From: a virus
Taxonomy: Duplodnaviria; Heunggongvirae; Uroviricota; Caudoviricetes
Reading direction: 5' to 3' (one strand)
Length of the DNA: 37,744 bases
Virus record (IMG/VR): IMGVR_UViG_2541047956_000006
Made by a program: the position numbers and the translations under genes. The notes beneath the pieces were generated by a model that had not been told where the DNA came from, did not search any database, and saw only the letters and a list, made by a program, of their open reading frames with translations. This document shows positions 4,523 to 37,744 of this stretch, in pieces (positions within the stretch are counted from its first letter, which is position 1; every line of letters begins with the position of its first letter).

Positions 4523-4753
4523 ATGTGTATTAAAGCTGAAAAATATATTGAATGGGTTAAACACTGTCAGTGCCACGGGGTGCCGCTGACGACATATAAA
4601 TGCCCCGGATGCGGTGAACAGATTATGACGCAATGCTCACACGAAAAGGAAATTCGGGATTCCCTGACATGTTGTCCGTGGTGCAGCGCAGTTTTCTTTA
4701 AGCAGGTAAAAGGCGCGAAGGTAAAAGCCAGCGCAGTTATTCAGAATCAATAA
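4523..4753 (+). CDS. Cys-rich small early protein, zinc-ribbon-like
   Basis: 76 aa from ATG 4523 (RBS GGAGATAACG); CQC, CPGC and CCPWC motifs. Track ORF starts at 4499 but that overlaps kil. Confidence 0.6.
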   Translation: MCIKAEKYIEWVKHCQCHGVPLTTYKCPGCGEQIMTQCSHEKEIRDSLTCCPWCSAVFFKQVKGAKVKASAVIQNQ

Positions 4754-4764
4754 GGAGAAATAAA

Positions 4765-5028
4765 ATGGCAAAGGTAATTATTGAAATTAAAAATACAGTA
4801 TCTGGAATTAAAGGACGGAATTTGCGCACCAGCATTGCGGTGGACGGTAGTGCGGAACTGGACGGTGATGAGGGGACACTTGCTGGCATGGTGGCGTTAC
4901 TGGTGCTTAATAAAAGCCAGAAAATAATTAATGAGTCAGCCCATGAAGCTATTGAGATTTTGAAAAACGATGGTGTCATCACAGGTGGCAGTGTCACTGA
5001 AATGGCTGTTGAAAAAACATGTCACTGA
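4765..5028 (+). CDS. Hypothetical early protein
   Basis: 87 aa ORF with RBS AAGGAGAAATAAA upstream; tightly packed in early operon. Confidence 0.6.
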   Translation: MAKVIIEIKNTVSGIKGRNLRTSIAVDGSAELDGDEGTLAGMVALLVLNKSQKIINESAHEAIEILKNDGVITGGSVTEMAVEKTCH

Positions 5029-5462
5029 AAGGAACGCTGACAATGAACGTCAAAATCCGAAATGAAATTCAGGCATTAATCCGAATTCAGGAACGCAATA
5101 ACAACGGTGGTGAATTACGCGAGTTTATTTGCACCCGGAAAGTTGATGATTGTGGTGAAAAGACGTACCTGATCGCTTTCGACCATTACAGCATCTGTGC
5201 GCGTTATTGCGGCGAAAGCATATCCCGCGCCATTGCATTTGGCGGTGCGTTCAACGTGGATTTATGGGAGTACGTCATGGACCGGGAATACATCTGCGCA
5301 TCAGACCCTGAAGCCCGTGAAATGTGGCAGCGTATCTGGCGCGATTACCGGTTAATGGCAAAAGGCTGGGCGCGCTGCTGTTATTCCTCACTTGCCCTGA
5401 AAGCGGTTCAGTTATCGCTGCGGCATATTCCGGCATCACTGCGCGAGCCTCTGCTGTACTGA
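5019..5462 (+). CDS. Hypothetical early protein (start 5019 or 5043)
   Basis: 147 aa ORF; alternative ATG at 5043 has a better-spaced AGGA. Confidence 0.6.
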   Translation: MSLKGTLTMNVKIRNEIQALIRIQERNNNGGELREFICTRKVDDCGEKTYLIAFDHYSICARYCGESISRAIAFGGAFNVDLWEYVMDREYICASDPEAREMWQRIWRDYRLMAKGWARCCYSSLALKAVQLSLRHIPASLREPLLY

Positions 5463-5762
5463 ATGGTGGCTGACATGAAGTGTAATCGTAAGCGCTGGTC
5501 ACGCGAAGACCGGGAATTTATCGAAGCCAACGTCGGGAAAATGACCGTTGAAGAAATGGCGGAAAAACTGAAAGTCGCCACAACCGCCCTCCGGGCACAT
5601 GCCAGAAGGCACGGAATATCATTGTGTGTATACCGAATCAGTGAACACGACAAATATTTATGTCGTGAACTTTATAAAGAAGGACTGGATATTCATGTCA
5701 TTGCCCGAAAGATGGAATTAAGCAATCGAGCTGTATCCAGCATTGTATACAGCGGATATTAA
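5463..5762 (+). CDS. Small early protein with helix-turn-helix-like segment
   Basis: 99 aa; KRWSREDREFIEANVGKMTVEEMAEKLKV resembles a Myb/sigma-region-4 type HTH. Start 5463 or 5475. Confidence 0.6.
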   Translation: MVADMKCNRKRWSREDREFIEANVGKMTVEEMAEKLKVATTALRAHARRHGISLCVYRISEHDKYLCRELYKEGLDIHVIARKMELSNRAVSSIVYSGY

Positions 5763-5781
5763 TTAACAGGAGCTTTAATTT

Positions 5782-6306
5782 ATGGCTAAACCAGCAAAAC
5801 GTATCAAAAGTGCCGCAGCGGCTTATGTGCCACAAAACCGCGATGCGGTGATTACTGATATTAAACGCATCGGGGATTTACAGCGCGAAGCATCACGTCT
5901 GGAAACGGAAATGAATGATGCCATCGCGGAAATTACGGAGAAATTTGCGGCCCGGATTGCACCGATTAAAACCGATATTGAAACCCTTTCAAAAGGCGTT
6001 CAGGGATGGTGTGAAGCGAACCGCGACGAACTGACGAACGGCGGCAAAGTGAAAACGGCAAATCTTGTCACCGGTGATGTATCGTGGCGGGTCCGTCCAC
6101 CATCAGTAAGTATTCGTGGTATGGATGCAGTGATGGAAACGCTGGAGCGTCTTGGCCTGCAACGCTTTATTCGCACGAAGCAGGAAATCAACAAGGAAGC
6201 GATTTTACTGGAACCGAAAGCGGTCGCAGGTGTTGCCGGAATTACGGTTAAATCGGGAATTGAAGATTTTTCCATTATTCCATTTGAACAGGAAGCCGGT
6301 ATTTAA
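5782..6306 (+). CDS. gam: Gam, host-nuclease inhibitor / DNA-end binding protein
   Basis: 174 aa; sequence (MAKPAKRIKSAAAAYVPQNRDAV...) matches Mu Gam as I recall it. Confidence 0.93.
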   Translation: MAKPAKRIKSAAAAYVPQNRDAVITDIKRIGDLQREASRLETEMNDAIAEITEKFAARIAPIKTDIETLSKGVQGWCEANRDELTNGGKVKTANLVTGDVSWRVRPPSVSIRGMDAVMETLERLGLQRFIRTKQEINKEAILLEPKAVAGVAGITVKSGIEDFSIIPFEQEAGI

Positions 6307-6404
6307 TACCACCATTAATATTTAATTAATTCACATTCTTTTAATTATGGCGCGATGCGTCAGGGGATTGCTCGCGCCTGAAACAGATTACTGAGGAATA
6401 AAAC

Positions 6405-6935
6405 ATGGTTGATGCAAAAATTCTGAATGGTGTCAGCACATTATTACGGGCTTACGGACGCCTGACCTGCGGAGTTCTGGCTGAAAAAATGAAGATGCCT
6501 CCCTCATCAATGGTGTATTTCCTGCGTGATGCGGTTGATGCCGGCGTTCTCACCGAATGCAACGGATTTTATGACGTTCCGCGCCCGCGTCCGACGCCGC
6601 CTGTAAGACGAAACGCAACTGAGCAGCCTGCTGTTGATGATGCGGTGTGGTGCAACTGGCGTCGCTCATTACCCTGGGTGGAAGGTAATACCATCCCCGC
6701 GCTGGCAAAAGAGTTTGCGACGGGCGTGCTGACCTGTGAATCCGTTCACATCGTTGCAGAAGTGGACAACAGAATGTGCGAACAGGGAATGCCACGTTTT
6801 GTGATGGCTTATATCGATATCCGGCTGGGGCGGTTTATTTGCAGTTCAAGCGCCTGGAATATCACCGACCATGTACTGCGTTATCTCATTCTTGATTGTT
6901 CTCCGGCTCCCGTAGCGGTGCAGGAGGTGGCGTGA
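6405..6935 (+). CDS. Hypothetical early protein
   Basis: 176 aa ORF with RBS GAGGAATAAAAC; stop overlaps next start (ATGA at 6933..6937). Confidence 0.6.
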   Translation: MVDAKILNGVSTLLRAYGRLTCGVLAEKMKMPPSSMVYFLRDAVDAGVLTECNGFYDVPRPRPTPPVRRNATEQPAVDDAVWCNWRRSLPWVEGNTIPALAKEFATGVLTCESVHIVAEVDNRMCEQGMPRFVMAYIDIRLGRFICSSSAWNITDHVLRYLILDCSPAPVAVQEVA

Positions 6936-7465
6936 TGTTTTTTAAAACGTCAAATCCCGCAGCACTGCTGGCGTGGGACCAGTTTATGGCGGACTGTCTG
7001 AAACTACGCGAAGAAGCCCGCCATCTTGATAAGGTTCTGGGTTGTGGTTGCCGGTCAGTATTCAGCACAGGTATTGGTGGGCGTTATTTTCATGGTGTGA
7101 ACTTTCCGGGGAATGAGCGCCCTTTCTCGCGGGAGCTGTGGACCGTACAACGGCCCGCATCAGGTAACAGTTGCAGGCCAAGAACATCGCGCATTCCTGC
7201 ACATCTGCGGGAGCAGTCAAAAGAGCTGGCGAAAATATGGCAGGAGAATATTCCGGTCACTTATGCCCGTACTGACGCTCTCTTACCCGCACTGGGACTG
7301 GATTTCAGCGCAACAATATTCGGCCCGCTCCGGTGGTTCCGTGTTGGTGATGTGATTTACGTCATGACAGGGATGACTCCCGCACAGGGCCGCATGACTG
7401 AAATCCTTTCTGACGAATTTATCCGGGCGCAAAAACAGGCGGAGGTAAACAATGGAAAACAATGA
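6935..7465 (+). CDS. Hypothetical early protein
   Basis: 176 aa from ATG 6935, preceded by CAGGAGG; track ORF from 6896 overlaps the upstream gene. Confidence 0.6.
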   Translation: MFFKTSNPAALLAWDQFMADCLKLREEARHLDKVLGCGCRSVFSTGIGGRYFHGVNFPGNERPFSRELWTVQRPASGNSCRPRTSRIPAHLREQSKELAKIWQENIPVTYARTDALLPALGLDFSATIFGPLRWFRVGDVIYVMTGMTPAQGRMTEILSDEFIRAQKQAEVNNGKQ

Positions 7466-7634
7466 AACATCGTATTCGTGGCTGGGGAAATTTACCACGG
7501 TGAAACAGGAATGCCCGACCTGCGGTAATGAATCCCCTGAATATCTGAAAGAGTGCCCTCATTGTGGCGGGCAGAAATGTAACCACTGCGATATGGGCGA
7601 TGACACGGCGTGCATGAATTGTGAAGGTGAGTGA
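7452..7634 (+). CDS. Small zinc-finger-like protein (four CxxC pairs)
   Basis: 60 aa with CPTC, CPHC, CNHC, CMNC. Confidence 0.55.
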   Translation: MENNETSYSWLGKFTTVKQECPTCGNESPEYLKECPHCGGQKCNHCDMGDDTACMNCEGE

Positions 7635-7635
7635 C

Positions 7636-7944
7636 ATGAATAATGGTGTATTTTCAAAATCAGAAGAGCTTGCCGCCCTGCTGATTGCCGGTGGTTTGCC
7701 GAAAAAAGAAGTGCATGACTTTGTGAATTTTGTATATGAGCCGTCTCATGAAAAAGCTATTGATGAGGTCATGGCGTACCGGTTTGGCATTATTGCTGAG
7801 TCACTGAGTCCTCACTGGATTATTGAAAATCTCCGCGCTATTGCTGATGGCAACGATAAATCAGCAGCCGTTGCTGCACTGGATGTGTTACGGCAAATGA
7901 GTCTGAAATTTTATCCTGAATTTATTCTGAGGGCCGCAAAATGA
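7636..7944 (+). CDS. Hypothetical early protein
   Basis: 102 aa from ATG 7636 with RBS AAGGTGAG; track start 7621 is a GTG overlapping the previous gene. Confidence 0.6.
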   Translation: MNNGVFSKSEELAALLIAGGLPKKEVHDFVNFVYEPSHEKAIDEVMAYRFGIIAESLSPHWIIENLRAIADGNDKSAAVAALDVLRQMSLKFYPEFILRAAK

Positions 7945-8243
7945 ACAATGAAGATAAATTTACTCCCCTTAATATTGATAACGTCATGGCTGAAAAAGGG
8001 ATGCTGGAACGTGTTCGCGCTATCGTTGAATATGGTATTAAGCATAATCTCACCGCCAGAGAAGTCCGTGACATTATCAACCGCGAAATGAATCGTCTGG
8101 AAACAGTAGTGGCACTGCAAAATGAAACAGCCCGCGAGGAGTACATCCGCCGCAGGCTGGGGTTATCAGACCAGGATATTGTTACTGACGCTCATGTGTT
8201 TGAGGCTTTTGAGATCCGTCAGCATCTGGGTCTAACGAACTGA
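7941..8243 (+). CDS. Hypothetical early protein
   Basis: 100 aa; start overlaps previous stop (ATGA). Confidence 0.6.
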   Translation: MNNEDKFTPLNIDNVMAEKGMLERVRAIVEYGIKHNLTAREVRDIINREMNRLETVVALQNETAREEYIRRRLGLSDQDIVTDAHVFEAFEIRQHLGLTN

Positions 8244-8448
8244 TAATGTCTTCCATGATCTTTGACAGTTGCATGTTTTCGCGGCGGCTTGTTCTTATTG
8301 CAGGCGCATCTTTTAAAATCTCTGCTGAAGAGCTGAAAATGGCCTGGCCCTCTTCTGCGGTGATGATCGCCTTCTTCACCAGAAGGCGCACCAGTGCTGA
8401 TGCAATCGCATAACCTGCAACATCATAAGGTTGTACATTATTTTCCAT
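8182..8448 (-). CDS. Candidate antisense small protein (88 aa), unknown function
   Basis: Fills the largest plus-strand coding gap in the prophage (8244..8517); ATG at 8448 preceded by GAGAGGA with ~4-nt spacing; balanced, helix-like composition. Confidence 0.35.
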   Translation of the reverse strand: MENNVQPYDVAGYAIASALVRLLVKKAIITAEEGQAIFSSSAEILKDAPAIRTSRRENMQLSKIMEDIISSLDPDADGSQKPQTHERQ

Positions 8449-8517
8449 AAAATCCTCTCTGATTGATGTGTAAATTCAGGCGGTGTTGCAGCACCGCCTC
8501 TTTCCGGAGGTACGATC

Positions 8518-9069
8518 ATGAATCGCACATCCCTGATTAAATTAATCCATGTCGCCCGTCGGGAGCTACAACTCGACGACGACACTTACCGCGCTTTTCT
8601 GATGCAGAAAACGGGCAAAATCAGTTGCCGCGAGCTGACGGTTACGCAACTGGAACAGGTGCTCGATGCCATGAAAGAACGCGGCTTTAAGAAGCTGAAT
8701 AAACATCCACGTCGCCGCTTTAAGGGGCATGTCACGCCCCGCGAGAAGGTATACAAAGTCTGGCAGCAGATGGCAGAAGACGGTTTTATTACCGATGGCG
8801 GTGATGTGGCGCTGGATAAATATGTTCAGCGCCTGACGGCGAAACGTAATGGCGGACAGGGTGTTTCCACGCTGGCGTGGTGTCATGGCGACACCCTGTT
8901 GATTGTTCTCGAAACTCTCAAGCAGTGGCATATCCGCTGTATTCGTGAAGCCTTTTCCCGTCACGGGCTTCCGTTGCCAGTCAGTCCGTCCGGGCGTGAA
9001 CTGCGCGGCTATGATGCCATGACGGCGGCTTATGCCCGTGCCAGAAAGACACGGAGGATGGCACAATGA
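8518..9069 (+). CDS. gemA: GemA-like early protein
   Basis: 183 aa; RBS GGAGG 7 nt upstream; directly precedes mor with overlapping stop/start. Confidence 0.85.
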   Translation: MNRTSLIKLIHVARRELQLDDDTYRAFLMQKTGKISCRELTVTQLEQVLDAMKERGFKKLNKHPRRRFKGHVTPREKVYKVWQQMAEDGFITDGGDVALDKYVQRLTAKRNGGQGVSTLAWCHGDTLLIVLETLKQWHIRCIREAFSRHGLPLPVSPSGRELRGYDAMTAAYARARKTRRMAQ

Positions 9070-9455
9070 CGGAAGATTTATTTGGTGATTTGCAGGATGA
9101 CACCATCCTGGCACATCTTGACAATCCCGCAGAGGATACGTCACGCTTTCCGGCACTGCTGGCGGAGCTGAACGATTTACTGCGCGGGGAATTGTCCCGG
9201 TTAGGTGTTGACCCGGCCCATTCACTGGAGATTGTTGTGGCTATCTGTAAGCATCTGGGCGGCGGTCAGGTCTACATTCCACGCGGTCAGGTTCTGGATT
9301 CGCTTATTCGGGATTTGCGTATCTGGAATGATTTCAACGGTCGCAATGTTCACGAACTGGCAATCCGTCATGGTGTGACATTTAACACAGTCTATAAAGC
9401 CATCCGACGAATGCGGCGTATAAAGTATCGTCAGTATTCCCCCCCTTTGTTTTAA
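9066..9455 (+). CDS. mor: Mor, middle operon regulator
   Basis: 129 aa; shares the GG.QVYIP ... FNGRN motifs with C protein at 10434; matches Mu Mor as recalled. Confidence 0.93.
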   Translation: MTEDLFGDLQDDTILAHLDNPAEDTSRFPALLAELNDLLRGELSRLGVDPAHSLEIVVAICKHLGGGQVYIPRGQVLDSLIRDLRIWNDFNGRNVHELAIRHGVTFNTVYKAIRRMRRIKYRQYSPPLF

Positions 9456-9460
9456 ACAGT

Positions 9461-9486
9461 AAAGCCGGTTAATCCGGCTTTTTTTA
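9461..9486 (+). terminator. Intrinsic terminator ending the early operon
   Basis: Stem AAAGCCGG / CCGGCTTT with 5-nt loop followed by a T run, immediately after mor. Confidence 0.75.
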
Positions 9487-9537
9487 CGCCCTCAATATTC
9501 TGTTGTGACGATAAAACGTTCATGACAGGAGGGCAAC

Positions 9538-10098
9538 ATGCCTGAGTTTTCCCCTGCATTCCTTCATTCGCTGAATTTCGTTATACGCCCTGATGTTGAA
9601 GGTGGCTATGTTAATGATCCTGCCGACCGTGGCGGCGAAACGAAATACGGTATTTCTGACCGTCGCGACGGCGTTATTGATGGCAAAACCGATGTTAACG
9701 GTGACGGAAAACCTGATACCCGCATTAAGGATTTAACCCGCGAGCAGGCGGCGCAGATCTACTGGCGTGATTACTGGCTGGCGGCAAAGTGTAACGAATG
9801 GCCTGATGGCGTTTCCTTATTCGTTTTTGATGCTGCCGTTCAGCACGGTGTTAAACGCGCGATTCAGATCCTCCAGGCGGCAGCAGGTGTTGATGATGAT
9901 GGCATCGTCGGTAAAAACACACGCGCAGCCGTTCTGCGTGCCGATACTGACTGGCTGCTGTTGCAGTGCTTCCTGCGTCGTTCCCGCTATTACGCAGGGA
10001 TTATCAAATCCAGTGCCTCGCAGGGGAAATATCTGAATGGCTGGTTTAACCGTCTGGATCTGCTCGCCAGCGCCTGTCGGGAGGTTCTGCATGGGTAA
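9538..10098 (+). CDS. GH108-like muramidase with C-terminal peptidoglycan-binding (PG_binding_3-like) region
   Basis: 186 aa; EGGYVNDPADRGGETKYGIS motif typical of GH108 N-termini; later DDDGIVGKNTRAAV resembles the PG-binding domain. Confidence 0.7.
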   Translation: MPEFSPAFLHSLNFVIRPDVEGGYVNDPADRGGETKYGISDRRDGVIDGKTDVNGDGKPDTRIKDLTREQAAQIYWRDYWLAAKCNEWPDGVSLFVFDAAVQHGVKRAIQILQAAAGVDDDGIVGKNTRAAVLRADTDWLLLQCFLRRSRYYAGIIKSSASQGKYLNGWFNRLDLLASACREVLHG

Positions 10099-10321
10099 AG
10101 GGTGGGATGCGTCCTTTCAGTTCGGCAGGCGTGAACGTTTACGACAGGAGGTATTACATCGGGAGGCCGGAGGCCCACCACCAAAGCCAATGGATTACAC
10201 AGGGCACGATGGCACCCACGGCAGTTATTACATGAAAGGCTGGCAGTCAGTTGATATGCCGGAAATTCTTCACCACTGTCAACGTTATAAGGAAAAATAT
10301 TGTGTACAGAAAATTCAGTGA
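10091..10321 (+). CDS. Hypothetical middle-operon protein
   Basis: 76 aa from ATG 10091 preceded by GGGAGG; track ORF from 10037 overlaps upstream gene. Confidence 0.5.
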   Translation: MGKGWDASFQFGRRERLRQEVLHREAGGPPPKPMDYTGHDGTHGSYYMKGWQSVDMPEILHHCQRYKEKYCVQKIQ

Positions 10322-10421
10322 TGAATGTTTCGGGCCGTCCACGCTGATTAATGCGATAAAAGTGATTGCCCTTGTGGTTCTGATAACCATCAGTGCCGTG
10401 GTGTATCTTTTTGTCTGTTAA
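10302..10421 (+). CDS. Candidate 39-aa membrane protein (not in ORF track)
   Basis: GTG at 10302 preceded by AGGA ~9 nt upstream; translation VYRKFSDECFGPSTLINAIKVIALVVLITISAVVYLFVC with a C-terminal hydrophobic helix. Confidence 0.3.
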   Translation: MYRKFSDECFGPSTLINAIKVIALVVLITISAVVYLFVC

Positions 10422-10433
10422 CCGGGGGAAAAT

Positions 10434-10856
10434 ATGCAGCATGATTTATTTGAACACGATCCGGCAATTCGCCAGTTAATCGGACATATTGATAACATCC
10501 CGGCCCCGGAACTGGAATCACGCTGGCCCCGTTCGGTGGTTGATCTGATTGATGTTCTGGAAAACGAACTGAAACGCCAGAACGTCAGCAATCCCCGTGA
10601 ACTTGCCCGTAAACAGGCCGTCGCCCTGTCCTGTTTTCTGGGTGGACGGCAGTTTTACATCCCCTGCGGCGATACGATCCTGACCGCGTTACGCGACGAT
10701 TTGCTTTACTGCCAGTTTAATGGTCGTAACATGGAAGAACTGCGTCGCCAGTACCGCCTGTCCCAGCCGCAGATCTACCAGATTATTGCCCGCCAGAGAA
10801 AGCTGCATACACGACGTCATCAGCCTGATCTGTTCTCACCTGAAAGCCCAAAATAA
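10434..10856 (+). CDS. C: C protein, late transcription activator
   Basis: 140 aa; Mor paralog (GGRQFYIP, FNGRNMEEL); located just upstream of lys. Confidence 0.93.
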   Translation: MQHDLFEHDPAIRQLIGHIDNIPAPELESRWPRSVVDLIDVLENELKRQNVSNPRELARKQAVALSCFLGGRQFYIPCGDTILTALRDDLLYCQFNGRNMEELRRQYRLSQPQIYQIIARQRKLHTRRHQPDLFSPESPK

Positions 10857-10880
10857 CCGGCATCCTGCCGGTTATTTCCT
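10854..10880 (+). terminator. Hairpin at end of C, candidate middle-operon terminator
   Basis: 9-bp stem TAACCGGCA / TGCCGGTTA with 3-nt loop followed by TTTCCT. Confidence 0.55.
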
Positions 10881-10947
10881 GTCACCATAATCCCGCACCT
10901 GCCACCTGATTTTTTAGACTGCCATCAGAGCATTTTTTCAGGGAAGC

Positions 10948-11466
10948 ATGATGGCGGGGATACCAAAAAAACTGAAAGCCACACTGCTGGCGGCAACGAT
11001 TGCCGGTGGCGGTGTGGGTGGTTATCAGGAAATGACCCGTCAGTCTCTGATCCACCTGGAAAATATCGCTTATATGCCTTACCGCGATATTGGCGGTGTG
11101 CTTTCGGTCTGTGTGGGGCATACCGGGCCGGATATCGAAATGCGCCGTTACAGCCATGCGGAGTGTATGGCTCTCCTCGACAGTGATTTAAAACCGGTTT
11201 ATGCGGCAATCGATCGTCTTGTCAGGGTGCCGCTGACGCCATATCAGAAAACGGCGCTGGCAACGTTTATTTTCAACACCGGTGTTACCGCATTCAGTAA
11301 ATCAACGCTGCTGAAAAAACTCAATGCCGGTGATTACGCCGGAGCGCGTGACCAGATGGCCCGCTGGGTGTTTGCCGCAGGCCATAAATGGAAAGGACTG
11401 ATGAACCGTCGCGAAGTGGAAATGGCTATCTGGAATATCAGGGGGGCGGATGACCTTCGCCAGTAA
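10948..11466 (+). CDS. lys: SAR endolysin, T4-lysozyme-like (GH24)
   Basis: 172 aa; Gly/Ala-rich weakly hydrophobic N-terminus (ATLLAATIAGGGVGG); catalytic spacing E-8x-D-5x-S. Confidence 0.92.
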   Translation: MMAGIPKKLKATLLAATIAGGGVGGYQEMTRQSLIHLENIAYMPYRDIGGVLSVCVGHTGPDIEMRRYSHAECMALLDSDLKPVYAAIDRLVRVPLTPYQKTALATFIFNTGVTAFSKSTLLKKLNAGDYAGARDQMARWVFAAGHKWKGLMNRREVEMAIWNIRGADDLRQ

Positions 11467-11836
11467 AAGTTTACTGCTGGCAGCCGTGTTTGCCGCCGTT
11501 CTGTCCGGGGTGTTGTGGCACAGGCTGGACAGCACCCGCCACGATAACCAGACGCTGCGCCGTGAATTACAGACGGAGCAACAGGCCCGCAACACGGCTG
11601 AATGGTTGTTACACGGTCAGGAACAGACGATGCAGGTATTTTCCGCTATCCGTGCCGCAAATCGTGCCGCGCGGCTGGCAGATGAGACAGAACATCATGA
11701 TGCAAAACAAAAAATTACAACCGCCATTACCGGTGACAATTGCAGCACTCGTCCTGTGCCTGCCGTTGCTGCTGACAGGTTGCGGGAACTCGAAAAACGC
11801 ACCCGTGCCATCGGTGGTGATCCTGCCCGAAACTGA
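11450..11836 (+). CDS. i-spanin (Rz-like)
   Basis: 128 aa with N-terminal TM helix then charged coiled-coil-like region; overlaps lys end. Confidence 0.8.
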   Translation: MTFASKSLLLAAVFAAVLSGVLWHRLDSTRHDNQTLRRELQTEQQARNTAEWLLHGQEQTMQVFSAIRAANRAARLADETEHHDAKQKITTAITGDNCSTRPVPAVAADRLRELEKRTRAIGGDPARN

Positions 11837-12038
11837 TGCAGAACTGACGGAAGCAACGCCCGTTCCGCCCATGCCACAGCCCCTGACGTGGGGAGCATCC
11901 CTTCTCTGGAATGCTGACCTGTTGATGGCGCTCGGGCAGTGCAACCGCGACAAGGCATCAGTCCGGGAACAGGAGACCCGAAGGAAAGAAATTTATGAAC
12001 GAAGACCAGAACCGGGCGGTGGCGCTGCTGCTCGCTGA
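11682..12038 (+). CDS. o-spanin (Rz1-like lipoprotein), overlapped with i-spanin
   Basis: Other frame, starts inside i-spanin gene; signal peptide ending in lipobox LLLTGC; start may be 11682, 11697 or 11700. Confidence 0.65.
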   Translation: MRQNIMMQNKKLQPPLPVTIAALVLCLPLLLTGCGNSKNAPVPSVVILPETDAELTEATPVPPMPQPLTWGASLLWNADLLMALGQCNRDKASVREQETRRKEIYERRPEPGGGAAAR

Positions 12039-12189
12039 ACTCTGGCAGGGGGATACCCGTGATATTCCCCGCCCGGCGGCGTATGACCCGCCTGTATTGT
12101 GTGCCGGTTGCGGTCGTGAGCTGCGGCCTGATGTGCTGAGACAGCAGCCGATGACGAACTACTGCCACTGGTGCCGTGGAGCAGAATAA
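11995..12189 (+). CDS. Hypothetical small protein
   Basis: 64 aa ORF with CxxC...CxxC; follows spanins. Confidence 0.5.
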   Translation: MNEDQNRAVALLLAELWQGDTRDIPRPAAYDPPVLCAGCGRELRPDVLRQQPMTNYCHWCRGAE

Positions 12190-12488
12190 TGGATTTGATT
12201 TCAGTTTTAGCGTTATGGCCTTACCTGTTGCCTGTTGTGGCCGGTGGGGCCGTCTGGGCAATGCGTCGTAGTTTTGCCAGCACTGAGCGTGTGGAGCGTC
12301 TTGAAAACCGGATGACCGAAATGGAAACCCGCTACGCCAGCATCCCTGGCACAGAAGATGTACACGAAATGCGCCTGCGTATTGCAGAGCTGTCCGGCGA
12401 TATCCGGGTGCTGTCCCAGCGGGTGCAGTCATTTTCCCATCAACTGGAGCTGCTGCTTGAAAACGCAGTAAACCGGAGTAATTCATGA
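12189..12488 (+). CDS. Small membrane protein (Mu gp25-like position)
   Basis: 99 aa from ATG 12189 (TAATG overlap); N-terminal TM helix MDLISVLALWPYLLPVVAGGAVWAM then coiled-coil-like region. Confidence 0.6.
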   Translation: MDLISVLALWPYLLPVVAGGAVWAMRRSFASTERVERLENRMTEMETRYASIPGTEDVHEMRLRIAELSGDIRVLSQRVQSFSHQLELLLENAVNRSNS

Positions 12489-12775
12489 TTAACGATATTC
12501 TGACCGAAGACCGTCGTCTGGTCATCCTGCGTTCCCTGATGGACTGCAATAACGAAGCAAACGAATCCATCCTTCAGGACTGTCTGGATGCATACGGACA
12601 CAACGTTTCCCGCGATGTGGTTCGCGGCCAGATTGACTGGCTGGCAGAGCAGCAACTGGTCACCGTGGAAAACCTGCGCGGCTTTTATGTCGTAACGCTG
12701 ACCTCCCGAGGTCAGGATGTGGCAGAAGGTCGTGCCCGCGTTGCCGGTGTCAAGCGTCCTCGTCCCCGTGCATGA
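12485..12775 (+). CDS. Hypothetical protein preceding terminase
   Basis: 96 aa; RBS GGAG 8 nt upstream. Confidence 0.6.
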   Translation: MINDILTEDRRLVILRSLMDCNNEANESILQDCLDAYGHNVSRDVVRGQIDWLAEQQLVTVENLRGFYVVTLTSRGQDVAEGRARVAGVKRPRPRA

Positions 12776-12786
12776 CAGGAGGCGTG

Positions 12787-13362
12787 ATGGACAGGAAAAC
12801 ACGGGGCCGGGCTTCAAAAGTGGATTTACTGCCGGAAAACGTACGTAAAACGCTGCATGAAATGCTGCGTGATAAAGCGATCCCACAGGCCCGCATTCTG
12901 GAAGAAATTAACGCACTGATTGAAGACGCAGGCCTGCCGGATGAGATGAAACTCTCCCGTTCCGGTCTGAATCGTTACGCGACGAACGTCGAGCAGGTAG
13001 GCCATAACCTGCGACAGATGCGTGAAATGACGTCAGCACTGACCGCAGAACTTGGCGACAAGCCAATGGGAGAAACCACAAAGCTGATTCTGGAAATGGC
13101 CCGCAGCCAGCTTTTTAAGGCCATGATGCGGCAAATCGAAAACCCGGAATCTGACGTGGATATTGACCTGCTGAAAAATGCCATGCTGGCGGCACAGCGT
13201 CTGGAATCCACGGCAATGTCCAGCCACCGGCGCGAGAAAGAAATCCGCCAGGCATTCGCAGAAGAAGCGGCAAACGCCGTCAGTGAAGAACTGCGCGGGC
13301 AGGATGGCATCAGCGAAGAGCTGGAGCAGCGTATCCGTGATGTGCTGCTGGGTAAGGCATGA
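12787..13362 (+). CDS. Probable terminase small subunit
   Basis: 191 aa from ATG 12787 with strong AGGAGG RBS (track start 12772); directly upstream of large terminase. Confidence 0.7.
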   Translation: MDRKTRGRASKVDLLPENVRKTLHEMLRDKAIPQARILEEINALIEDAGLPDEMKLSRSGLNRYATNVEQVGHNLRQMREMTSALTAELGDKPMGETTKLILEMARSQLFKAMMRQIENPESDVDIDLLKNAMLAAQRLESTAMSSHRREKEIRQAFAEEAANAVSEELRGQDGISEELEQRIRDVLLGKA

Positions 13363-13369
13363 GAGGGTT

Positions 13370-15025
13370 ATGAACACCAGAGAAAACAATCTTAAAGCCC
13401 TTCATGCCCCCCGCAAAATCGACCTGCGCAAGGAGGCCGAACTGCTTGGCGTGAATATCGTGACCGATATCGGGGAAGCGCAGCCCCGCAATGAACCGGT
13501 TTTCCTGGGCTATCAGCGCCGCTGGTTTGAGGATGAAAGCCAGATTTGCATTGCTGAAAAATCCCGTCGTACCGGTCTGACATGGGCCGAAGCGGGCCGC
13601 AATGTCATGACGGCCGCAAAGCCGCGTCGCCGTGGTGGTCGCAACGTCTTTTATGTGGGTTCCCGTCAGGAAATGGCGCTGGAATACATCGCCGCCTGTG
13701 CCCTGTTTGCCCGCGCCTTTAACCAGCTGGCAAAGGCTGACGTCTGGGAGCAGACCTTCTGGGACAGCGACAAAAAAGAAGAAATCCTCACCTACATGAT
13801 CCGCTTTCCGAACAGTGGATTTAAGGTGCAGGCGCTTTCAAGCCGCCCGTCTAACCTGCGTGGTTTACAGGGGGATGTGGTGATTGATGAAGCGGCATTT
13901 CATGAAGCCCTGGACGAACTCCTGAAAGCGGCCTTTGCGCTCACCATGTGGGGTGCCCGCGTGCGGATCATATCGACACATAACGGCGTCGATAACCTGT
14001 TTAACCAGTACATTCAGGATGCGCGCGAGGGGCGCAAGGATTACAGCGTTCACCGCATCACGCTGGATGATGCCATCGCTGACGGACTGTACCGGCGTAT
14101 CTGTTACGTCACGAATCAGCCGTGGTCGCCGGAAGCGGAAAAAGCCTGGCGTGATGGCCTGTACCGGAATGCGCCGAATAAAGAGAGCGCCGACGAGGAA
14201 TACGGCTGTATTCCCAAAAAATCCGGTGGCGCTTACCTGTCCCGTGTCCTGATTGAAGCTGCCATGACACCCGCGCGGGATATCCCGGTTCTGCGTTTTG
14301 AAGCCCCGGACGATTTTGAATCGCTGACACCGCAGATGCGCCACGGTATCGTTCAGGACTGGTGTGAACAGGAGCTGCTCCCGTTGCTCGATGCGCTGTC
14401 ACCGCTCAATAAACACGTACTGGGCGAAGACTTTGCACGCCGTGGCGACCTGACGGTGTTTGTGCCGCTTGCCATCACTCCAGACTTACGCAAACGCGAA
14501 TGTTTCCGCGTGGAGCTGCGTAATGTGACCTATGACCAGCAGCGACAAATCCTTTTATTCATTCTGTCCCGTTTGCCCCGTTTTACCGGCGCTGCATTTG
14601 ATGCCACCGGTAACGGCGGTTATATGGCAGAAGCCGCCCGTCTGATTTATGGCCCGGAGATGATCGACTGTGTGAATCTGACCGCATCCTGGTATCAGGA
14701 GTGGATGCCAAAACTGAAAGGCGAGTTTGAAGCGCAGAACATCACGATTGCCCGGCACCAGACCACACTTGATGACCTGCTCCATATCAAGGTGGACAAA
14801 GGTATTCCGCAGATTGATAAGGGGCGCACAAAAGATGAAGGCGGTAAAGGCCGACGACATGGCGACTTTGCCGTGGCGCTCTGTATGGCTGTCAGGGCGT
14901 CTTATATGAATGGTTTTGTTATCGACGAGGACAGCATACAGGCGCTGCCACCACGCCACCGTGGTGATGATGTTGATAACGATGATTTTGATGATTATCA
15001 CCAGTTTGAACGAGGGGGCTGGTAA
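13370..15025 (+). CDS. Terminase large subunit
   Basis: 551 aa from ATG 13370 (track ORF start 13178 overlaps upstream gene); nuclease-like region LQGDVVIDEAAF; position before portal. Confidence 0.88.
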   Translation: MNTRENNLKALHAPRKIDLRKEAELLGVNIVTDIGEAQPRNEPVFLGYQRRWFEDESQICIAEKSRRTGLTWAEAGRNVMTAAKPRRRGGRNVFYVGSRQEMALEYIAACALFARAFNQLAKADVWEQTFWDSDKKEEILTYMIRFPNSGFKVQALSSRPSNLRGLQGDVVIDEAAFHEALDELLKAAFALTMWGARVRIISTHNGVDNLFNQYIQDAREGRKDYSVHRITLDDAIADGLYRRICYVTNQPWSPEAEKAWRDGLYRNAPNKESADEEYGCIPKKSGGAYLSRVLIEAAMTPARDIPVLRFEAPDDFESLTPQMRHGIVQDWCEQELLPLLDALSPLNKHVLGEDFARRGDLTVFVPLAITPDLRKRECFRVELRNVTYDQQRQILLFILSRLPRFTGAAFDATGNGGYMAEAARLIYGPEMIDCVNLTASWYQEWMPKLKGEFEAQNITIARHQTTLDDLLHIKVDKGIPQIDKGRTKDEGGKGRRHGDFAVALCMAVRASYMNGFVIDEDSIQALPPRHRGDDVDNDDFDDYHQFERGGW

Positions 15026-16563
15026 TGGGCCGTATTCTGGATATTTCCGGGCAGCCGTTTGATTTTGACGATGAAATGCAGACCCGCAGCGATGAGCTGG
15101 CAATGGTCATGAAGCGCACGCAGGAGCATCCTTCCAGTGGTGTAACGCCGAACCGGGCCGCGCAGATGCTGCGTGATGCCGAACGCGGTGATCTGACAGC
15201 ACAGGCTGACCTGGCCTTTGATATGGAAGAAAAGGACACCCACCTTTTTTCCGAACTGAGCAAACGCCGCCTTGCCATTCAGGCGCTGGAATGGCGCATC
15301 GCTCCGGCACGTGATGCCAGCGCACAGGAGAAAAAAGACGCCGACATGCTGAATGAATATCTGCATGATGCGGCGTGGTTTGAAGATGCCCTGTTTGATG
15401 CCGGTGATGCCATTCTCAAGGGCTATTCCATGCAGGAGATTGAATGGGGGTGGCTTGGGAAAATGCGCGTGCCGGTGGCGCTGCATCATCGCGATCCGGC
15501 GCTGTTCTGCGCGAACCCCGACAATCTGAACGAATTACGCCTGCGTGATGCGTCTTATCACGGGCTGGAGCTGCAACCGTTCGGCTGGTTTATGCACCGG
15601 GCCAAATCCCGCACCGGGTATGTCGGCACCAATGGCCTTGTGCGCACGCTTATCTGGCCTTTTATTTTTAAAAACTATTCCGTGCGTGATTTTGCAGAGT
15701 TTCTGGAAATTTACGGACTTCCCATGCGCGTCGGTAAATATCCGACCGGCTCAACGAACCGCGAGAAAGCCACGCTGATGCAGGCCGTGATGGATATCGG
15801 GCGACGTGCCGGTGGCATTATTCCGATGGGGATGACGCTGGATTTTCAGAGCGCCGCAGATGGTCAGTCAGACCCTTTTATGGCGATGATTGGCTGGGCA
15901 GAAAAAGCGATTTCAAAAGCCATTCTGGGCGGCACCCTGACCACAGAGGCTGGCGATAAAGGTGCGCGGTCGCTGGGTGAAGTGCATGATGAGGTTCGCC
16001 GGGAAATCCGTAACGCGGATGTGGGCCAGCTTGCCCGCAGTATTAACCGTGACCTGATTTATCCCCTGCTGGCACTGAACAGTGACAGTACCATTGATAT
16101 TAACCGCCTGCCGGGCATTGTATTTGATACCAGTGAAGCGGGTGATATTACGGCACTATCTGACGCCATTCCGAAACTGGCGGCGGGAATGCGTGTTCCG
16201 GTCTCCTGGATACAGGAAAAACTTCATATTCCACAGCCGGTCGGTGATGAAGCCGTGTTTACTGCTCAACCGGTTGTCCCGGATAACGGTCCGCAGAAAG
16301 AGGCCGCATTATCCGCTGAAGATATCCCGCCGGAGGATGATATCGACCGGATGGGCGTCTCACCGGAAGACTGGCAGCGTTCGGTTGATCCCCTGCTGAA
16401 ACCCGTCATTTTTTCTGTGCTGAAAGATGGCCCGGAAGCCGCCATGAACAAAGCCGCTTCATTATATCCCCAGATGGATGATGCAGAACTTATCGACATG
16501 CTGACCCGTGCCATTTTTGTTGCCGATATATGGGGGCGTCTGGATGCCGCAGCAGACCATTGA
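15025..16563 (+). CDS. H: Portal protein
   Basis: 512 aa; TAATG overlap with terminase; Mu late gene order. Confidence 0.9.
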   Translation: MGRILDISGQPFDFDDEMQTRSDELAMVMKRTQEHPSSGVTPNRAAQMLRDAERGDLTAQADLAFDMEEKDTHLFSELSKRRLAIQALEWRIAPARDASAQEKKDADMLNEYLHDAAWFEDALFDAGDAILKGYSMQEIEWGWLGKMRVPVALHHRDPALFCANPDNLNELRLRDASYHGLELQPFGWFMHRAKSRTGYVGTNGLVRTLIWPFIFKNYSVRDFAEFLEIYGLPMRVGKYPTGSTNREKATLMQAVMDIGRRAGGIIPMGMTLDFQSAADGQSDPFMAMIGWAEKAISKAILGGTLTTEAGDKGARSLGEVHDEVRREIRNADVGQLARSINRDLIYPLLALNSDSTIDINRLPGIVFDTSEAGDITALSDAIPKLAAGMRVPVSWIQEKLHIPQPVGDEAVFTAQPVVPDNGPQKEAALSAEDIPPEDDIDRMGVSPEDWQRSVDPLLKPVIFSVLKDGPEAAMNKAASLYPQMDDAELIDMLTRAIFVADIWGRLDAAADH

Positions 16564-37140: not shown

Positions 37141-37211
37141 ATTTGAAGCGCGAAAGCTAAAGTTTTCGCATTTATCGTGAAACGCTTTCGCGTTTTTCGT
37201 GCGCCGCTTCA
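37141..37211 (+). promoter_or_regulatory. Right end (attR) with MuA end-binding repeats R1-R3
   Basis: GCGAAAG/CGAAAA-type repeats in both orientations; terminal ...GCGCCGCTTCA. Confidence 0.8.
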
Positions 37212-37744
37212 GCCAGCGCGTCGTCAAACACATCCTGACGGTTGGCGTATTCTTTCATTAACGAGAGATCGTTAAGCGTGCCGGAGTACAGCAACCACAG
37301 CGGAACAATGGCAATCTGCATATGCAACAACCAGCGCCACAGCGGATGCGTGGAGATTCGGCGGATGGCATCGCTACAGGCCAGCAGTGCCAGCGCCGCA
37401 GCCAGCCAGAAACCACTTCCGAGGCAGGTACGCGCCAGCGCACTACCATTTTGCGCCAGTTGTGTCGCCGCCTTTCCAGCTCCCCACACCAGCAATACGA
37501 AGACGAATTGCGCCAGAATGAGTGCAAAAATGCTGCCTTTTTTAGCGGGAATAAAACAGGCTGTCAGCCAGGCGCAACCAACGCCCACCAGCATCCAGAG
37601 AGTTTGCGGCCACAGCTGCCAGAGATGACGCCCCTCACCCGAAACTAAACGATTAGGTGCGTAACTGATAAACGGCAGCGCCGCTGCGATTGCCGTCAGC
37701 AACAGCAGCAGCGCCAGAACAGGATTAATACGGAAATAAGTCAC
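37172..37744 (-). CDS. Host integral membrane protein, 5' portion; last 13 codons come from the prophage right end (gene split by insertion). 5' end runs off the window
   Basis: Minus-strand ORF with several hydrophobic helices; frame continues across the reconstructed empty site into 33..1. Confidence 0.7.
37212..37216. repeat. Target-site duplication, right copy (GCCAG)
   Basis: Identical to 29..33. Confidence 0.85.

Follow-up and report, generated by a model that had tools for sequence, protein, structure and literature searches.

Bacteriophage Mu has no holin, reportedly as the first tailed phage for which this was established, and its gp19 and gp20 do not act as holins (PMC9239132). The middle operon of Mu consists of Pm-gp18-gp19-gp20-C, and the dependence of Pm on Mor was established experimentally (PMC4390567). 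The lysis system of Mu comprises the SAR endolysin gp22, which was the subject of experimental work (PMC9239132), the spanins gp23/23.1 and the releasin gp25. We used both units for comparison. PMC9239132 leaves open how the many Mu-like phages with cytoplasmic endolysins lyse their hosts and which function DUF2730 proteins have in them. For nine Vibrio Mu-like phages, a protein with GH108 and PG_binding_3 domains is listed as the endolysin (Chamblee et al., PMC9239132 Table S1).

The closest known counterparts of the gene described here are the endolysins of Vibrio phage 1.028.O (AUR82803), Shewanella phage MuM16-2 (p20) and Klebsiella phage Kp4866-3. They have the same two domains, are signal-less and show 43-72% full-length identity. 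In these three phages GH108 lies right after Mor and is followed by a gp18 homologue and, further on, by DUF2730, gp26 and the small terminase subunit, as in the phage described here. The Vibrio and Shewanella proteins differ in having no D-rich insertion, and their genes have a different upstream hairpin, while the enterobacterial relatives have the promoter core in common with this phage. Compared with the Mu-like phages in which GH108 is the only lysozyme found, this phage has no putative holin and no TraR, but it has C, a SAR GH24 lysozyme and spanins. Since C and the SAR lysozyme are present, GH108 is one of two muramidases here and belongs to a 'middle' and not to a 'late' unit.

More distant members of the family are known from other settings. 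Family GH108 was founded on an N-acetylmuramidase, gp61 of coliphage N4 (Stojkovic and Rothman-Denes 2007, cited in PMC13284979). Together with the GH108 endolysins of Acinetobacter phages, gp61 shares the Pfam family, the EGGY motif and the role of a signal-less endolysin, but these proteins have, N4 gp61 presumably included, approximately 40% identity or less, unrelated gene contexts and no D-rich insertion. TtsA and Sen1395, muramidases of type 10 secretion, and SagA of Brucella have the same fold and are signal-less as well. Unlike the phage gene, they are bacterial genes for non-lytic secretion or secretion-system assembly.

A GH108 muramidase gene in a Muvirus genome

We analysed a window of 37,744 nt, the whole stretch of DNA in IMG/VR record IMGVR_UViG_2541047956_000006, which is a Muvirus genome. 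All features given below lie on its plus strand. A sequence-only reading of this DNA had proposed a GH108-like muramidase with a PG_binding_3 segment at 9538..10098 and had named a Pfam search as one check. We ran this search and both domains scored above their cut-offs. Glyco_hydro_108 (PF05838) matched aa 20-104 (9595..9849) with E 9.3e-25 and 87.4 bits against a cut-off of 21.2, covering profile positions 7-85 of 85. PG_binding_3 (PF09374) matched aa 107-173 (9856..10056) with E 6.8e-14 and 52.3 bits against 24.6. The protein also belongs to PHROG 315 'endolysin' (E 1.4e-51). The gene is one uninterrupted frame of 186 aa, which cannot be extended upstream because of an in-frame TGA at 9523-9525. 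The translation reads EGGYVNDPADRGGETKYGIS at aa 21-40, where E21-G22-G23-Y24 (9598-9609) forms the EGGY motif and Glu21 is the putative catalytic residue. We conclude that 9538..10098 encodes a GH108 family protein with a PG_binding_3 domain, which would act as an N-acetylmuramidase.

Residues E21, Y24-N26-D27-P28, D30 and G32-G33-E34-T35 did not change in 38 enterobacterial homologues, and the same residues were fixed in an alignment of 18 homologues that included the Vibrio and Shewanella orthologues. The motif is followed by a clade-specific insertion, DRRDGVIDGKTDVNGDGKPD (aa 41-60, 9658..9717), with a D-x-N-x-D-G pattern. D41, R43, D44, G45, D48, G49, D52, G55, D56, P59 and D60 of this insertion were fixed in the 38 enterobacterial homologues, while the insertion as such is missing from NMB1012 and from the Vibrio and Shewanella orthologues. 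Judging from the motif, it is a candidate Ca2+-binding loop.

Sequence matches in the PDB were GH108-type proteins, namely NMB1012, SagA, Sen1395 and TtsA. The AlphaFold model (pLDDT 82.7, pTM 0.83, with low confidence at residues 25-32 and 43-46) was compared with solved structures by Foldseek. The best match was SagA (7DNP, Brucella; TM 0.73), followed by NMB1012 (2IKB; TM 0.64) and by Sen1395 (6V3Z) and TtsA (6V40) with TM 0.54-0.59. The predicted model thus has the helical lysozyme-like fold of the solved GH108 members.

We found no signal, SAR or transmembrane segment in this soluble protein, and its maximum 19-residue Kyte-Doolittle hydropathy was 0.93. The N-terminus, MPEFSPAFLHSLNFVIRPDVEGG, has no weakly hydrophobic segment of the SAR type, so the protein does not qualify as a SAR endolysin; its first 40 aa are acidic (3 basic and 6 acidic residues). 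Without any of these segments the protein has no access to the wall as long as the cell is intact. RefSeq already annotates the gene as GH108 and, apart from the lysis system in which it is found, it is an ordinary, correctly annotatable member of an endolysin family.

Promoter, terminator and neighbouring genes

The gene was said to follow the terminator of the early operon directly, and our analysis bears this out. A hairpin, AAAGCCGG-TTAAT-CCGGCTTT with a T-run, at 9461..9485 (-12.2 kcal/mol, z -2.7) is the intrinsic terminator that ends the early operon. It is identical in Mu (AF083977), where it is annotated (TransTermHP) as the terminator after mor, within Pm. Our built-in terminator scan did not list this hairpin, perhaps, as we guess, because its rule counts the T's of the stem; folding and the annotation of Mu confirm it. 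A search of Rfam found no structured RNA family anywhere in the window.

The hairpin overlaps the putative Mor-binding element of Pm, AGTAAAGCCGGTTAAT (9458..9473), in which 5-bp inverted repeats flank a G/C-rich hexamer. Its position follows from Mu, where Mor binds a 16-bp element with its centre at -43.5 (PMC4390567), and all 16 bases are the same in both phages. Over 9453-9503, 49 of 51 bases are identical to Mu Pm, including a -10 hexamer TATTCT at 9496..9501 (TATCCT in Mu) that we recognise by this homology. By homology to Mu, whose +1 we deduced from primer MLK7 (+10 to -9) in PMC4390567, transcription would start at about 9508-9509. The GH108 start lies approximately 30 nt downstream of this predicted position, and a strong Shine-Dalgarno sequence, AGGAGG (9527..9532), ends 5 nt before its ATG. 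GH108 would therefore be the first gene after the early-operon terminator, in a Mor-dependent middle operon upstream of C. The homology to Mu Pm also agrees with the earlier proposal that the gene stands outside the C-dependent late lysis operon.

The next gene, at 10091..10321, encodes the homologue of Mu gp18 (76 aa; alignment to Mu; PHROG 2121, E 3.8e-38). Its ATG overlaps the GH108 stop (ATGGGTAA), which suggests translational coupling. It is followed by a homologue of Mu gp20 (10302..10421; 39 aa, one transmembrane segment, GTG start; PHROG 19823, E 2.6e-30) and by C, the late-gene activator and last gene of the middle operon (10434..10856; Pfam Mor family, E 9.4e-34), with 99.3% amino-acid identity to Mu C. 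The first gene of the C-dependent lys operon, at 10948..11466, encodes a Mu-type SAR endolysin (GH24 Phage_lysozyme, Pfam E 3.8e-36), which is the other peptidoglycan hydrolase that had been noticed. It differs from Mu gp22 by four substitutions only, including T52S. We considered a weakened SAR lysozyme tied to the presence of GH108 and rejected it: this phage and vB_YpM_5 share T52S, yet the GH108-bearing elppa5 prophage has T52.

Mu and this phage have Pm, gp18, gp20, C, lys, the i-spanin gene and DUF2730 (gp25) in the same order. They differ in that Mu has a stretch of 14 nt in place of about 570 bp with GH108, and also has the four-transmembrane gp19, which is missing here and in SfMu. 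A search of the interval 5000-16000 of the window for the PHROG 1544 putative holin found no homologue. We do not claim a fusion of gp18 with this putative holin: the PHROG 2121 profile spans gp18-like and PHROG 1544-like parts, but all 64 gp18 homologues that we found stand alone, with 51-96 aa.

The position of the gene also bears on whether its product could be a virion-associated lysin that helps the tail to pass through the wall at infection. Peptidoglycan hydrolases are present in the virions of some phages, and the peptidoglycan-binding domain would suit such a role. Nevertheless, we find it scarcely credible, as the gene lies outside the structural modules and before the late genes, and Mu, D108 and SfMu infect without GH108. 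Moreover, no other endolysin candidate was found in the relatives, and GH108 is the assigned endolysin of the Vibrio phages (PMC9239132).

Mu-like relatives and the origin of the gene

We surveyed approximately 80 related Mu-like loci, searching for lysozymes within 6 kb on either side with two lysozyme queries. In 67 loci the order was Mor-[TM110]-GH108-gp18-[gp19]-putative holin-TraR-DUF2730-gp26-terS, and neither of the two lysozyme types was found within 6 kb of these GH108 genes. In 13 Muvirus-type loci it was Mor-GH108-gp18-[gp19]-gp20-C-lysozyme-DUF2730, with spanins in the subset in which the second lysozyme is the Mu-type SAR enzyme. In 77 of 81 related loci a 23-nt promoter/hairpin core precedes the GH108 start by 54-75 nt, and the 903 kb searched contain it at no other place. 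gp18 follows GH108 in every surveyed locus long enough to show it, and DUF2730 (Mu gp25) homologues accompany the cytoplasmic GH108 in all relatives surveyed. The unit of Pm core, GH108 and gp18 is thus conserved, and in the relatives that have no C, GH108 stands at the start of the sole Mor-dependent unit.

That GH108 is the only lysozyme of these relatives rests on the 6-kb search with two queries, on a single genome with full annotation and on a published table; in Shewanella MuM16-2 it is the sole annotated lysozyme. Mu-like prophages of Klebsiella and MuSo of Shewanella are further examples of the GH108-only type. The label of putative holin for PHROG 1544 comes from sub-threshold Pfam matches to GTA_holin_3TM (18 bits against a cut-off of 24.8, E about 0.004) and should be read as a hint.

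In this context, GH108 most likely represents the ancestral endolysin, of the cytoplasmic type, which a minority of Muvirus phages have retained. As the same enzyme is the sole identified lysis enzyme of most Mu-like phages, the gene appears to be inherited and still selected, and not a mysterious addition. In the wider Mu-like group, the Mor-dependent operon starts with the Mor-site/hairpin promoter core, GH108 and gp18, and continues with the putative holin, TraR, DUF2730 and the head genes. In the Mu lineage, gp20, C and a second lysozyme (with spanins if it is the Mu-type SAR enzyme) would have taken the place of the putative holin and TraR, ahead of DUF2730. Through this replacement the genes next to the promoter would have become a 'middle' operon of their own, so the 'early' timing of GH108 would be due to C having split a once-single Mor-dependent operon. 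Subsequently, Mu, D108 and SfMu would have lost GH108, while this phage and a minority of relatives kept it.

Loss in Mu rather than gain here is suggested by distribution and co-divergence. In Mu, D108 and SfMu the flanks match and the GH108 gene is missing. Compared with Klebsiella phage Kp4866-3, identity was 72% for GH108, 71% for gp18, 62% for Mor and 51% for GemA, so GH108 has diverged comparably to gp18 and less than Mor and GemA. We looked for a deletion or insertion scar at the junctions. Downstream of the -10 hexamer, only about 17 nt of leader sequence can be aligned between this phage and Mu (p about 0.006), and the remainder of the 14-nt filler of Mu shows no match to the leader of GH108 or to its 3' end. 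As no scar decides the matter, the direction, loss in Mu or gain here, cannot be read from the junctions.

The sequence-only reading had treated the second hydrolase as an unexplained extra, possibly for cell-wall remodelling or superinfection. Its observations and part of its interpretation (the identity of the protein, its place in the operon and the second lysozyme) were upheld, while the unexplained extra role was not: the gene is the orthologue of the only identified endolysin of the relatives and occupies the same promoter-proximal place. The idea amounts to a moron, a recent accessory gene with a role outside lysis, such as wall remodelling, superinfection exclusion or a lysogen phenotype. 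Morons are typically present in some genomes and absent from others at a site next to a promoter, as GH108 is, and SagA, one of the fold matches, supports the type IV system of Brucella. Among GH108 proteins elsewhere, TtsA has a non-lytic role in toxin secretion (PMC13284979). However, the same gene, place and promoter core recur across the Mu-like group, in which we found no further lysozyme. Composition is not foreign (GC 52.9% for the gene and 52.0% for the genome), and there was no closer donor among 5.8 billion proteins, the next cluster having 73-74% identity. In addition to lacking an export signal, the protein had no match among the PADLOC defence-system models and reached 71.2 bits against a cut-off of 240 with the TtsA equivalog model of type 10 secretion (NCBIfam NF040573). 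A lysogen phenotype is unlikely because Pm requires Mor and is therefore silent in Mu lysogens (PMC4390567). We consider a moron very improbable.

Selection on the gene and its probable role at lysis

We compared the gene with its copies in other genomes. There were 13 synonymous and no nonsynonymous differences from the copy in elppa5, and 23 synonymous and 2 nonsynonymous differences from the copy in SE11 (dN/dS 0.024). JNEC-KY180, an E. coli prophage, has the same sequence as this phage across the operon. GH108 is therefore under strong purifying selection, with dN/dS of 0-0.024 against E. coli prophage copies; against Kp4866-3 the value was 0.15. At the same time, the gene is dispensable for plaque formation. 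Yersinia phages vB_YpM_5 and vB_YpM_6 have it, vB_YpM_3 and vB_YpM_23 do not, and all four form plaques. We rejected a link with host range in these phages, since Y. enterocolitica is lysed by vB_YpM_6 and vB_YpM_23 while GH108 is present in vB_YpM_5 and vB_YpM_6.

These data can be set against the idea that GH108 is a functionless leftover of the ancestral lysis cassette, heading for deletion as in Mu, D108 and SfMu. Most Muvirus genomes have no GH108, it is present in only 8 of 48 E. coli genomes (prophages) with a Mu-like middle operon, its absence leaves the phages fully viable and no holin partner remains here. On the other hand, the frame was intact in all 13 Muvirus-type copies surveyed, and the catalytic motif and the entire D-rich insertion were invariant. 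Taken with the low dN/dS, this makes a relic decidedly unlikely.

We think it probable that the gene is the orthologue of the endolysin of the wider Mu-like group, retained by this phage as an auxiliary or back-up muramidase at lysis. GH108 would be made from Pm after Mor appears and would build up in the cytoplasm, which contains no substrate for it; early synthesis would be harmless because the protein has no export signal. Peptidoglycan would come within its reach only with the breach of the inner membrane at lysis, and the enzyme would then work alongside the SAR endolysin. Like canonical soluble endolysins the protein has no signal, but no holin is found in the same phage and, by homology, it would not be co-expressed with the late genes. 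As no holin is recognisable here and experiments showed Mu itself to be holin-less (PMC9239132), GH108 would have no evident way to the wall until the SAR endolysin and spanins have wrecked the envelope. A purely post-lysis role is, in turn, hard to square with the strong purifying selection.

GH108 might instead be exported without a holin. In that case gp18, gp20 or the DUF2730 protein gp25 would move or release it across the inner membrane, and it would act ahead of the SAR endolysin or jointly with it; it might, for instance, thin the wall and so set the time of lysis or allow lysis of walls that GH24 handles poorly. Assisted passage through the membrane is known for signal-less GH108 enzymes such as TtsA in type 10 secretion (PMC13284979), and the role of DUF2730, present beside cytoplasmic GH108 in all the relatives, is open where the endolysin is not of the SAR type (Chamblee et al., PMC9239132). 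Further points in favour are the strong selection in spite of a complete Mu-type lysis set and the constant place of gp18 next after GH108, with overlapping genes here. However, we know of no transport function for gp18, gp20 or gp25. No match to gp18 was found in our local Pfam, NCBIfam and PADLOC copies, its AlphaFold model consists of three helices without a membrane segment, and a PDB fold search gave no significant match (best E 0.6). In Mu, gp19, gp20 and gp25 were non-lethal after DNP, and genes 19 and 20 are dispensable (PMC9239132). The relatives have a putative holin, so gp18 and DUF2730 need not export GH108 there. We therefore regard export as rather unlikely.

A more specific form, in which gp18, gp20 or the DUF2730 'releasin' of a holin-less Mu-type phage delivers the signal-less middle-operon enzyme to the wall or activates it there, perhaps with a Ca2+-dependent switch in the D-x-N-x-D-G insertion, is in our opinion unlikely. 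If true, it would be a second, holin-independent deployment of a cytoplasmic endolysin, and would explain why DUF2730 stands beside non-SAR endolysins throughout the Mu-like phages.

Natural Mu relatives infecting E. coli or Yersinia that have both the ancestral GH108 and the SAR endolysin/releasin set of Mu provide a tractable genetic system for the questions left open on cytoplasmic endolysins and DUF2730. The poorly understood middle-operon genes of Mu also appear in a new light: gp18, and also gp19 in the phages that have it, appear to be what is left of an ancestral lysis cassette.

The GH108 protein and its domains

We analyzed the gene at 9538..10098 (+ strand), a single ORF of 186 aa, which the sequence-only reading had described as a GH108-like muramidase with a PG_binding_3 segment. 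Pfam HMM searches confirmed this description, as both matches were significant and far over the curated cut-offs (Glyco_hydro_108: 87.4 bits, E 9.3e-25, aa 20-104; PG_binding_3: 52.3 bits, E 6.8e-14, aa 107-173). The protein also matched PHROG 315, "endolysin" (E 1.4e-51), and its RefSeq name is already "glycoside hydrolase family 108 protein". A longer N-terminus is ruled out by an in-frame TGA at 9523-9525, upstream of the ATG. Residues 21-40 are EGGYVNDPADRGGETKYGIS; Glu21 of the EGGY motif and the YVNDPxDxGGET block were invariant among all aligned homologues. A PDB sequence search returned NMB1012, Brucella SagA, a Porphyromonas "secretion activator", Sen1395 and TtsA. The AlphaFold model (pLDDT 82.7, pTM 0.83) was closest in fold to SagA (7DNP, TM 0.73), followed by NMB1012, Sen1395 and TtsA. 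Profile, EGGY motif with its Glu, fold and PG_binding_3 partner, all the testable marks of the family, are present in this protein.

Two other identities were rejected: a TtsA-type secretion muramidase equivalog (71 bits against a cut-off of 240) and a SAR endolysin, since no hydrophobic segment is present (19-residue hydropathy reaches at most 0.93). On this ground, and given its acidic N-terminus, we consider the protein cytoplasmic. There was no match to defence-system models.

Residues 41-60 (9658-9717, + strand; DRRDGVIDGKTDVNGDGKPD) form a clade-specific insertion, rich in D and with a D-x-N-x-D-G pattern, that NMB1012 and the orthologues from Vibrio and Shewanella lack. Eleven of its residues were invariant across 38 enterobacterial homologues; the AlphaFold confidence was low in part of this region. 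D52-x-N54-x-D56-G57 fits the DxDxDG calcium-loop pattern, and the insertion may be a calcium-binding loop. Speculatively, the enzyme could be kept quiet in the cytoplasm by an activity switch that depends on Ca2+.

The middle operon and neighbouring genes

The window contains a complete Muvirus (Mu-type) genome, at 34-37211, whose left end resembles D108/SfMu from base 34 and whose right end resembles Mu up to base 37211. The flanks of 33 nt (1-33) and 533 nt (37212-37744) show no likeness to Mu; presumably they are host DNA, either next to a prophage or packaged with the genome. GemA (8518-9069) and Mor (9066-9455; Pfam Mor, E 5.9e-30) precede the GH108 gene. The 51 bases following the mor stop codon (9453-9503) agree with Mu at 49 positions; the Mu record gives this region two annotations, a predicted terminator and Pm, the middle promoter that Mor activates. 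In Mu the Mor site is a 16-bp element, centred at -43.5, with a pair of 5-bp inverted repeats, and the Mu start site is fixed by primer MLK7 (+10 to -9) (Ma and Howe, PMC4390567). Transferred from Mu, the predicted Mor site lies at 9458-9473 (+; sequence identical to Mu), the predicted -10 hexamer TATTCT at 9496-9501 (+) and the predicted transcription start near 9508 (+). Folding gave -12.2 kcal/mol for the hairpin at 9461-9481 and its T-run. A strong Shine-Dalgarno AGGAGG (9527-9532, +) precedes the GH108 ATG. The GH108 stop codon is overlapped by the ATG of the Mu gp18 homologue (ATGGGTAA; 10091-10321, +), which is followed by homologues of gp20 (10302-10421, +) and of the late activator C (10434-10856, +). 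The gene had been placed in the middle operon, behind the early terminator and before the late lysis genes; this was right, by homology to the experimentally characterised Pm of Mu.

The gp18 family (precomputed Pfam PF26867, PHROG 2121) was also located at 4570-4788 and 4535-4795 in the surveyed loci L004 and L005. Its members always adjoin GH108 downstream, from Enterobacterales to Vibrio and Shewanella, and purifying selection acts on them (dN/dS 0.05-0.11); a fold of three helices is predicted, for which the PDB gave no match. The four-transmembrane gp19 of Mu is absent from the window (near 10321, between gp18 and gp20) and from SfMu, and present in Mu, the elppa5 and SE11 prophages and many GH108-only relatives. 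It is an independent presence/absence polymorphism within the same operon, noted also at 2245-2607 of locus L001.

GemA shares 99.5% identity with SfMu, whereas Mor shares 93% with Mu/SfMu and 100% with the elppa5 prophage; in IMG/VR locus L018, GH108 occurs together with a Mu-type Mor 3' end. These mixed affinities indicate that the region around GH108 was shuffled by recombination.

Distribution and origin of the GH108 gene

The Yersinia phages vB_YpM_5 and vB_YpM_6 were 99.2% identical to the window over 9000-11500, and Mu, D108 and SfMu covered 75-77% of that region. In the alignment, Mu and SfMu carry a short filler in place of the approximately 570 bp with GH108; on the left, homology to Mu reaches about 17 nt beyond the -10 hexamer, and on the right it begins again precisely with the gp18 ATG. 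Among 5426 complete E. coli genomes, 48 had a matching Mu-like middle operon, and eight of these (8/48) had GH108; the elppa5 and SE11 prophages show the fuller order Mor-GH108-gp18-gp19-(gp20)-C-lysozyme. By tblastn of phage records we detected homologues in Klebsiella phage Kp4866-3 (72% identity), in Shewanella phage MuM16-2 (43%) and in nine Mu-like phages of Vibrio; every one of them sits directly after Mor, 8-10 kb from the left end.

Further, an IMG/VR scan gave 79 loci (GH108 identity 65-100%), which we annotated together with reference loci and the window by a panel of neighbour proteins. The order GemA-Mor-[TM110]-GH108-gp18-[gp19]-PHROG1544 protein-TraR-DUF2730-gp26-small terminase was observed in 67 loci, where neither Mu-type nor SE11-type lysozyme was detected within 6 kb on either side. 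Another 13, with GH108 98-100% identical, had GemA-Mor-GH108-gp18-[gp19]-gp20-C-lysozyme-[spanin]-DUF2730-gp26-small terminase. In all loci reaching far enough, gp18 followed GH108. In 77 of 81 loci a 23-nt promoter core, AAGCCGGT[AT]AATCCGGCTTTTTT, preceded the GH108 start by 54-75 nt; it was present nowhere else in the 903 kb of these loci. Of the remaining four, two had near-matches; the other two, from Vibrio and Shewanella, carry at the corresponding position, 20-70 nt before GH108, another hairpin with a T-run (AAAAGCACAAT...GGTTGTGCTTTT), and this suggests that terminator and activator site are arranged analogously there, in a different sequence. In IMGVR_UViG_2531839192_000008, otherwise Muvirus-type, part of the Pm hairpin/Mor-site region is duplicated, about 100 nt before GH108 begins.

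Amino-acid identities to Kp4866-3 were 72% for GH108, 71% for gp18, 62% for Mor and 51% for GemA, so the divergence of GH108 is similar to that of gp18 and smaller than that of Mor or GemA. No recent donor was visible in a search of 5.8 billion proteins, where the nearest sequence outside the Muvirus cluster had 73-74% identity, and the GC content of the gene (52.9%) is close to that of the genome (52.0%). Together with the conserved promoter-GH108-gp18 unit, these results favour an ancestral gene that this phage retained and that Mu, D108 and SfMu lost; we state this as an inference, since the comparison with Mu revealed no decisive scar at the junctions.

The gene is under purifying selection in the Mu-type context. 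All Muvirus-type copies were full-length, and dN/dS was 0 against the elppa5 copy (13 synonymous, 0 nonsynonymous), 0.024 against SE11 (23 and 2) and 0.15 against Kp4866-3 (81.8 and 76.2). GH108 is present in vB_YpM_5 and vB_YpM_6 and absent from vB_YpM_3 and vB_YpM_23, all four isolated as plaque formers; it is therefore not essential for plaque formation.

Possible role beside the SAR endolysin

The second hydrolase of this phage is real: ORF 10948-11466 matched Phage_lysozyme (E 3.8e-36) and differs from the Mu SAR endolysin gp22 by four substitutions. That its coexistence with GH108 is unexplained, as the sequence-only reading held, did not stand, as it is largely accounted for by a probably ancestral Mu-like endolysin kept in a Muvirus minority. 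GH108 endolysins of Mu-like phages are already in the literature, and the RefSeq name is correct. A GH108+PG_binding_3 protein is listed as the endolysin of Vibrio phages, and a GH24 enzyme alone for vB_YpM_5 and vB_YpM_6, whose second muramidase is thus unrecorded there (Chamblee et al., PMC9239132, Table S1). The literature searched contained no remark on GH108 coexisting with the Mu SAR system.

Canonical endolysins accumulate ahead of holin triggering. A cytoplasmic GH108 enzyme would have no substrate until the inner membrane opens, so its early synthesis would be harmless. Among relatives with Mor only, GH108 heads the one Mor-dependent unit, to which the lysis and head genes also belong; the Mu lineage has C and a C-dependent lys promoter downstream of GH108, which is thereby left in the later "middle" operon. 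The "early" timing is best read as a matter of history.

The only lysozyme in the fully annotated Shewanella genome is GH108. In GH108-only phages a protein of about 200 aa (PHROG 1544; 5176-5781 in L004, 4780-5388 in L005) follows gp18/gp19; it is absent from Mu-type genomes, and no homologue was found in window 5000-16000. Hydrophobic C-terminal segments, read from its sequence, and sub-threshold GTA_holin_3TM matches make it a plausible but unproven candidate for the missing holin of this group. The PHROG 2121 profile covers gp18-like and PHROG 1544-like parts; no fused protein was found among gp18 homologues. We infer that Mu gp18 and gp19 are tied to a former lysis cassette. The GH108 protein is orthologous to the endolysins of other Mu-like phages and probably works as they do, whereas the window phage lacks the putative holin, has a second, SAR-type muramidase and carries GH108 in the middle operon.

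The simplest reading is an auxiliary muramidase, which would join after the SAR endolysin and spanins breach the envelope. The strong selection on GH108 fits poorly with a purely auxiliary role, and therefore we keep the rival explanation that gp18, gp20 or the DUF2730 protein gives GH108 access to the wall. DUF2730 homologues of Mu gp25 (25-32% identity) occur along with GH108 in all relatives. In Mu, experiments showed that there is no holin and that none of gp19, gp20 and gp25 acts as one (PMC9239132). This phage is mainly of value as a tractable system for the working of DUF2730 proteins and cytoplasmic endolysins in Mu-like phages that seem to have no holin.

The SE11 prophage (L008) has a different, shorter lysozyme of 142 aa with a hydrophobic N-terminus (4929-5357); DUF2730 follows it directly, and no spanin genes were annotated. 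The Mu-type SAR endolysin of the window carries T52S (Mu numbering), as does vB_YpM_5, and T52 is kept in Mu, SfMu and the GH108-bearing elppa5 prophage; in the Mu annotation residue 52 is the third of the catalytic triad E37, D46, T52.
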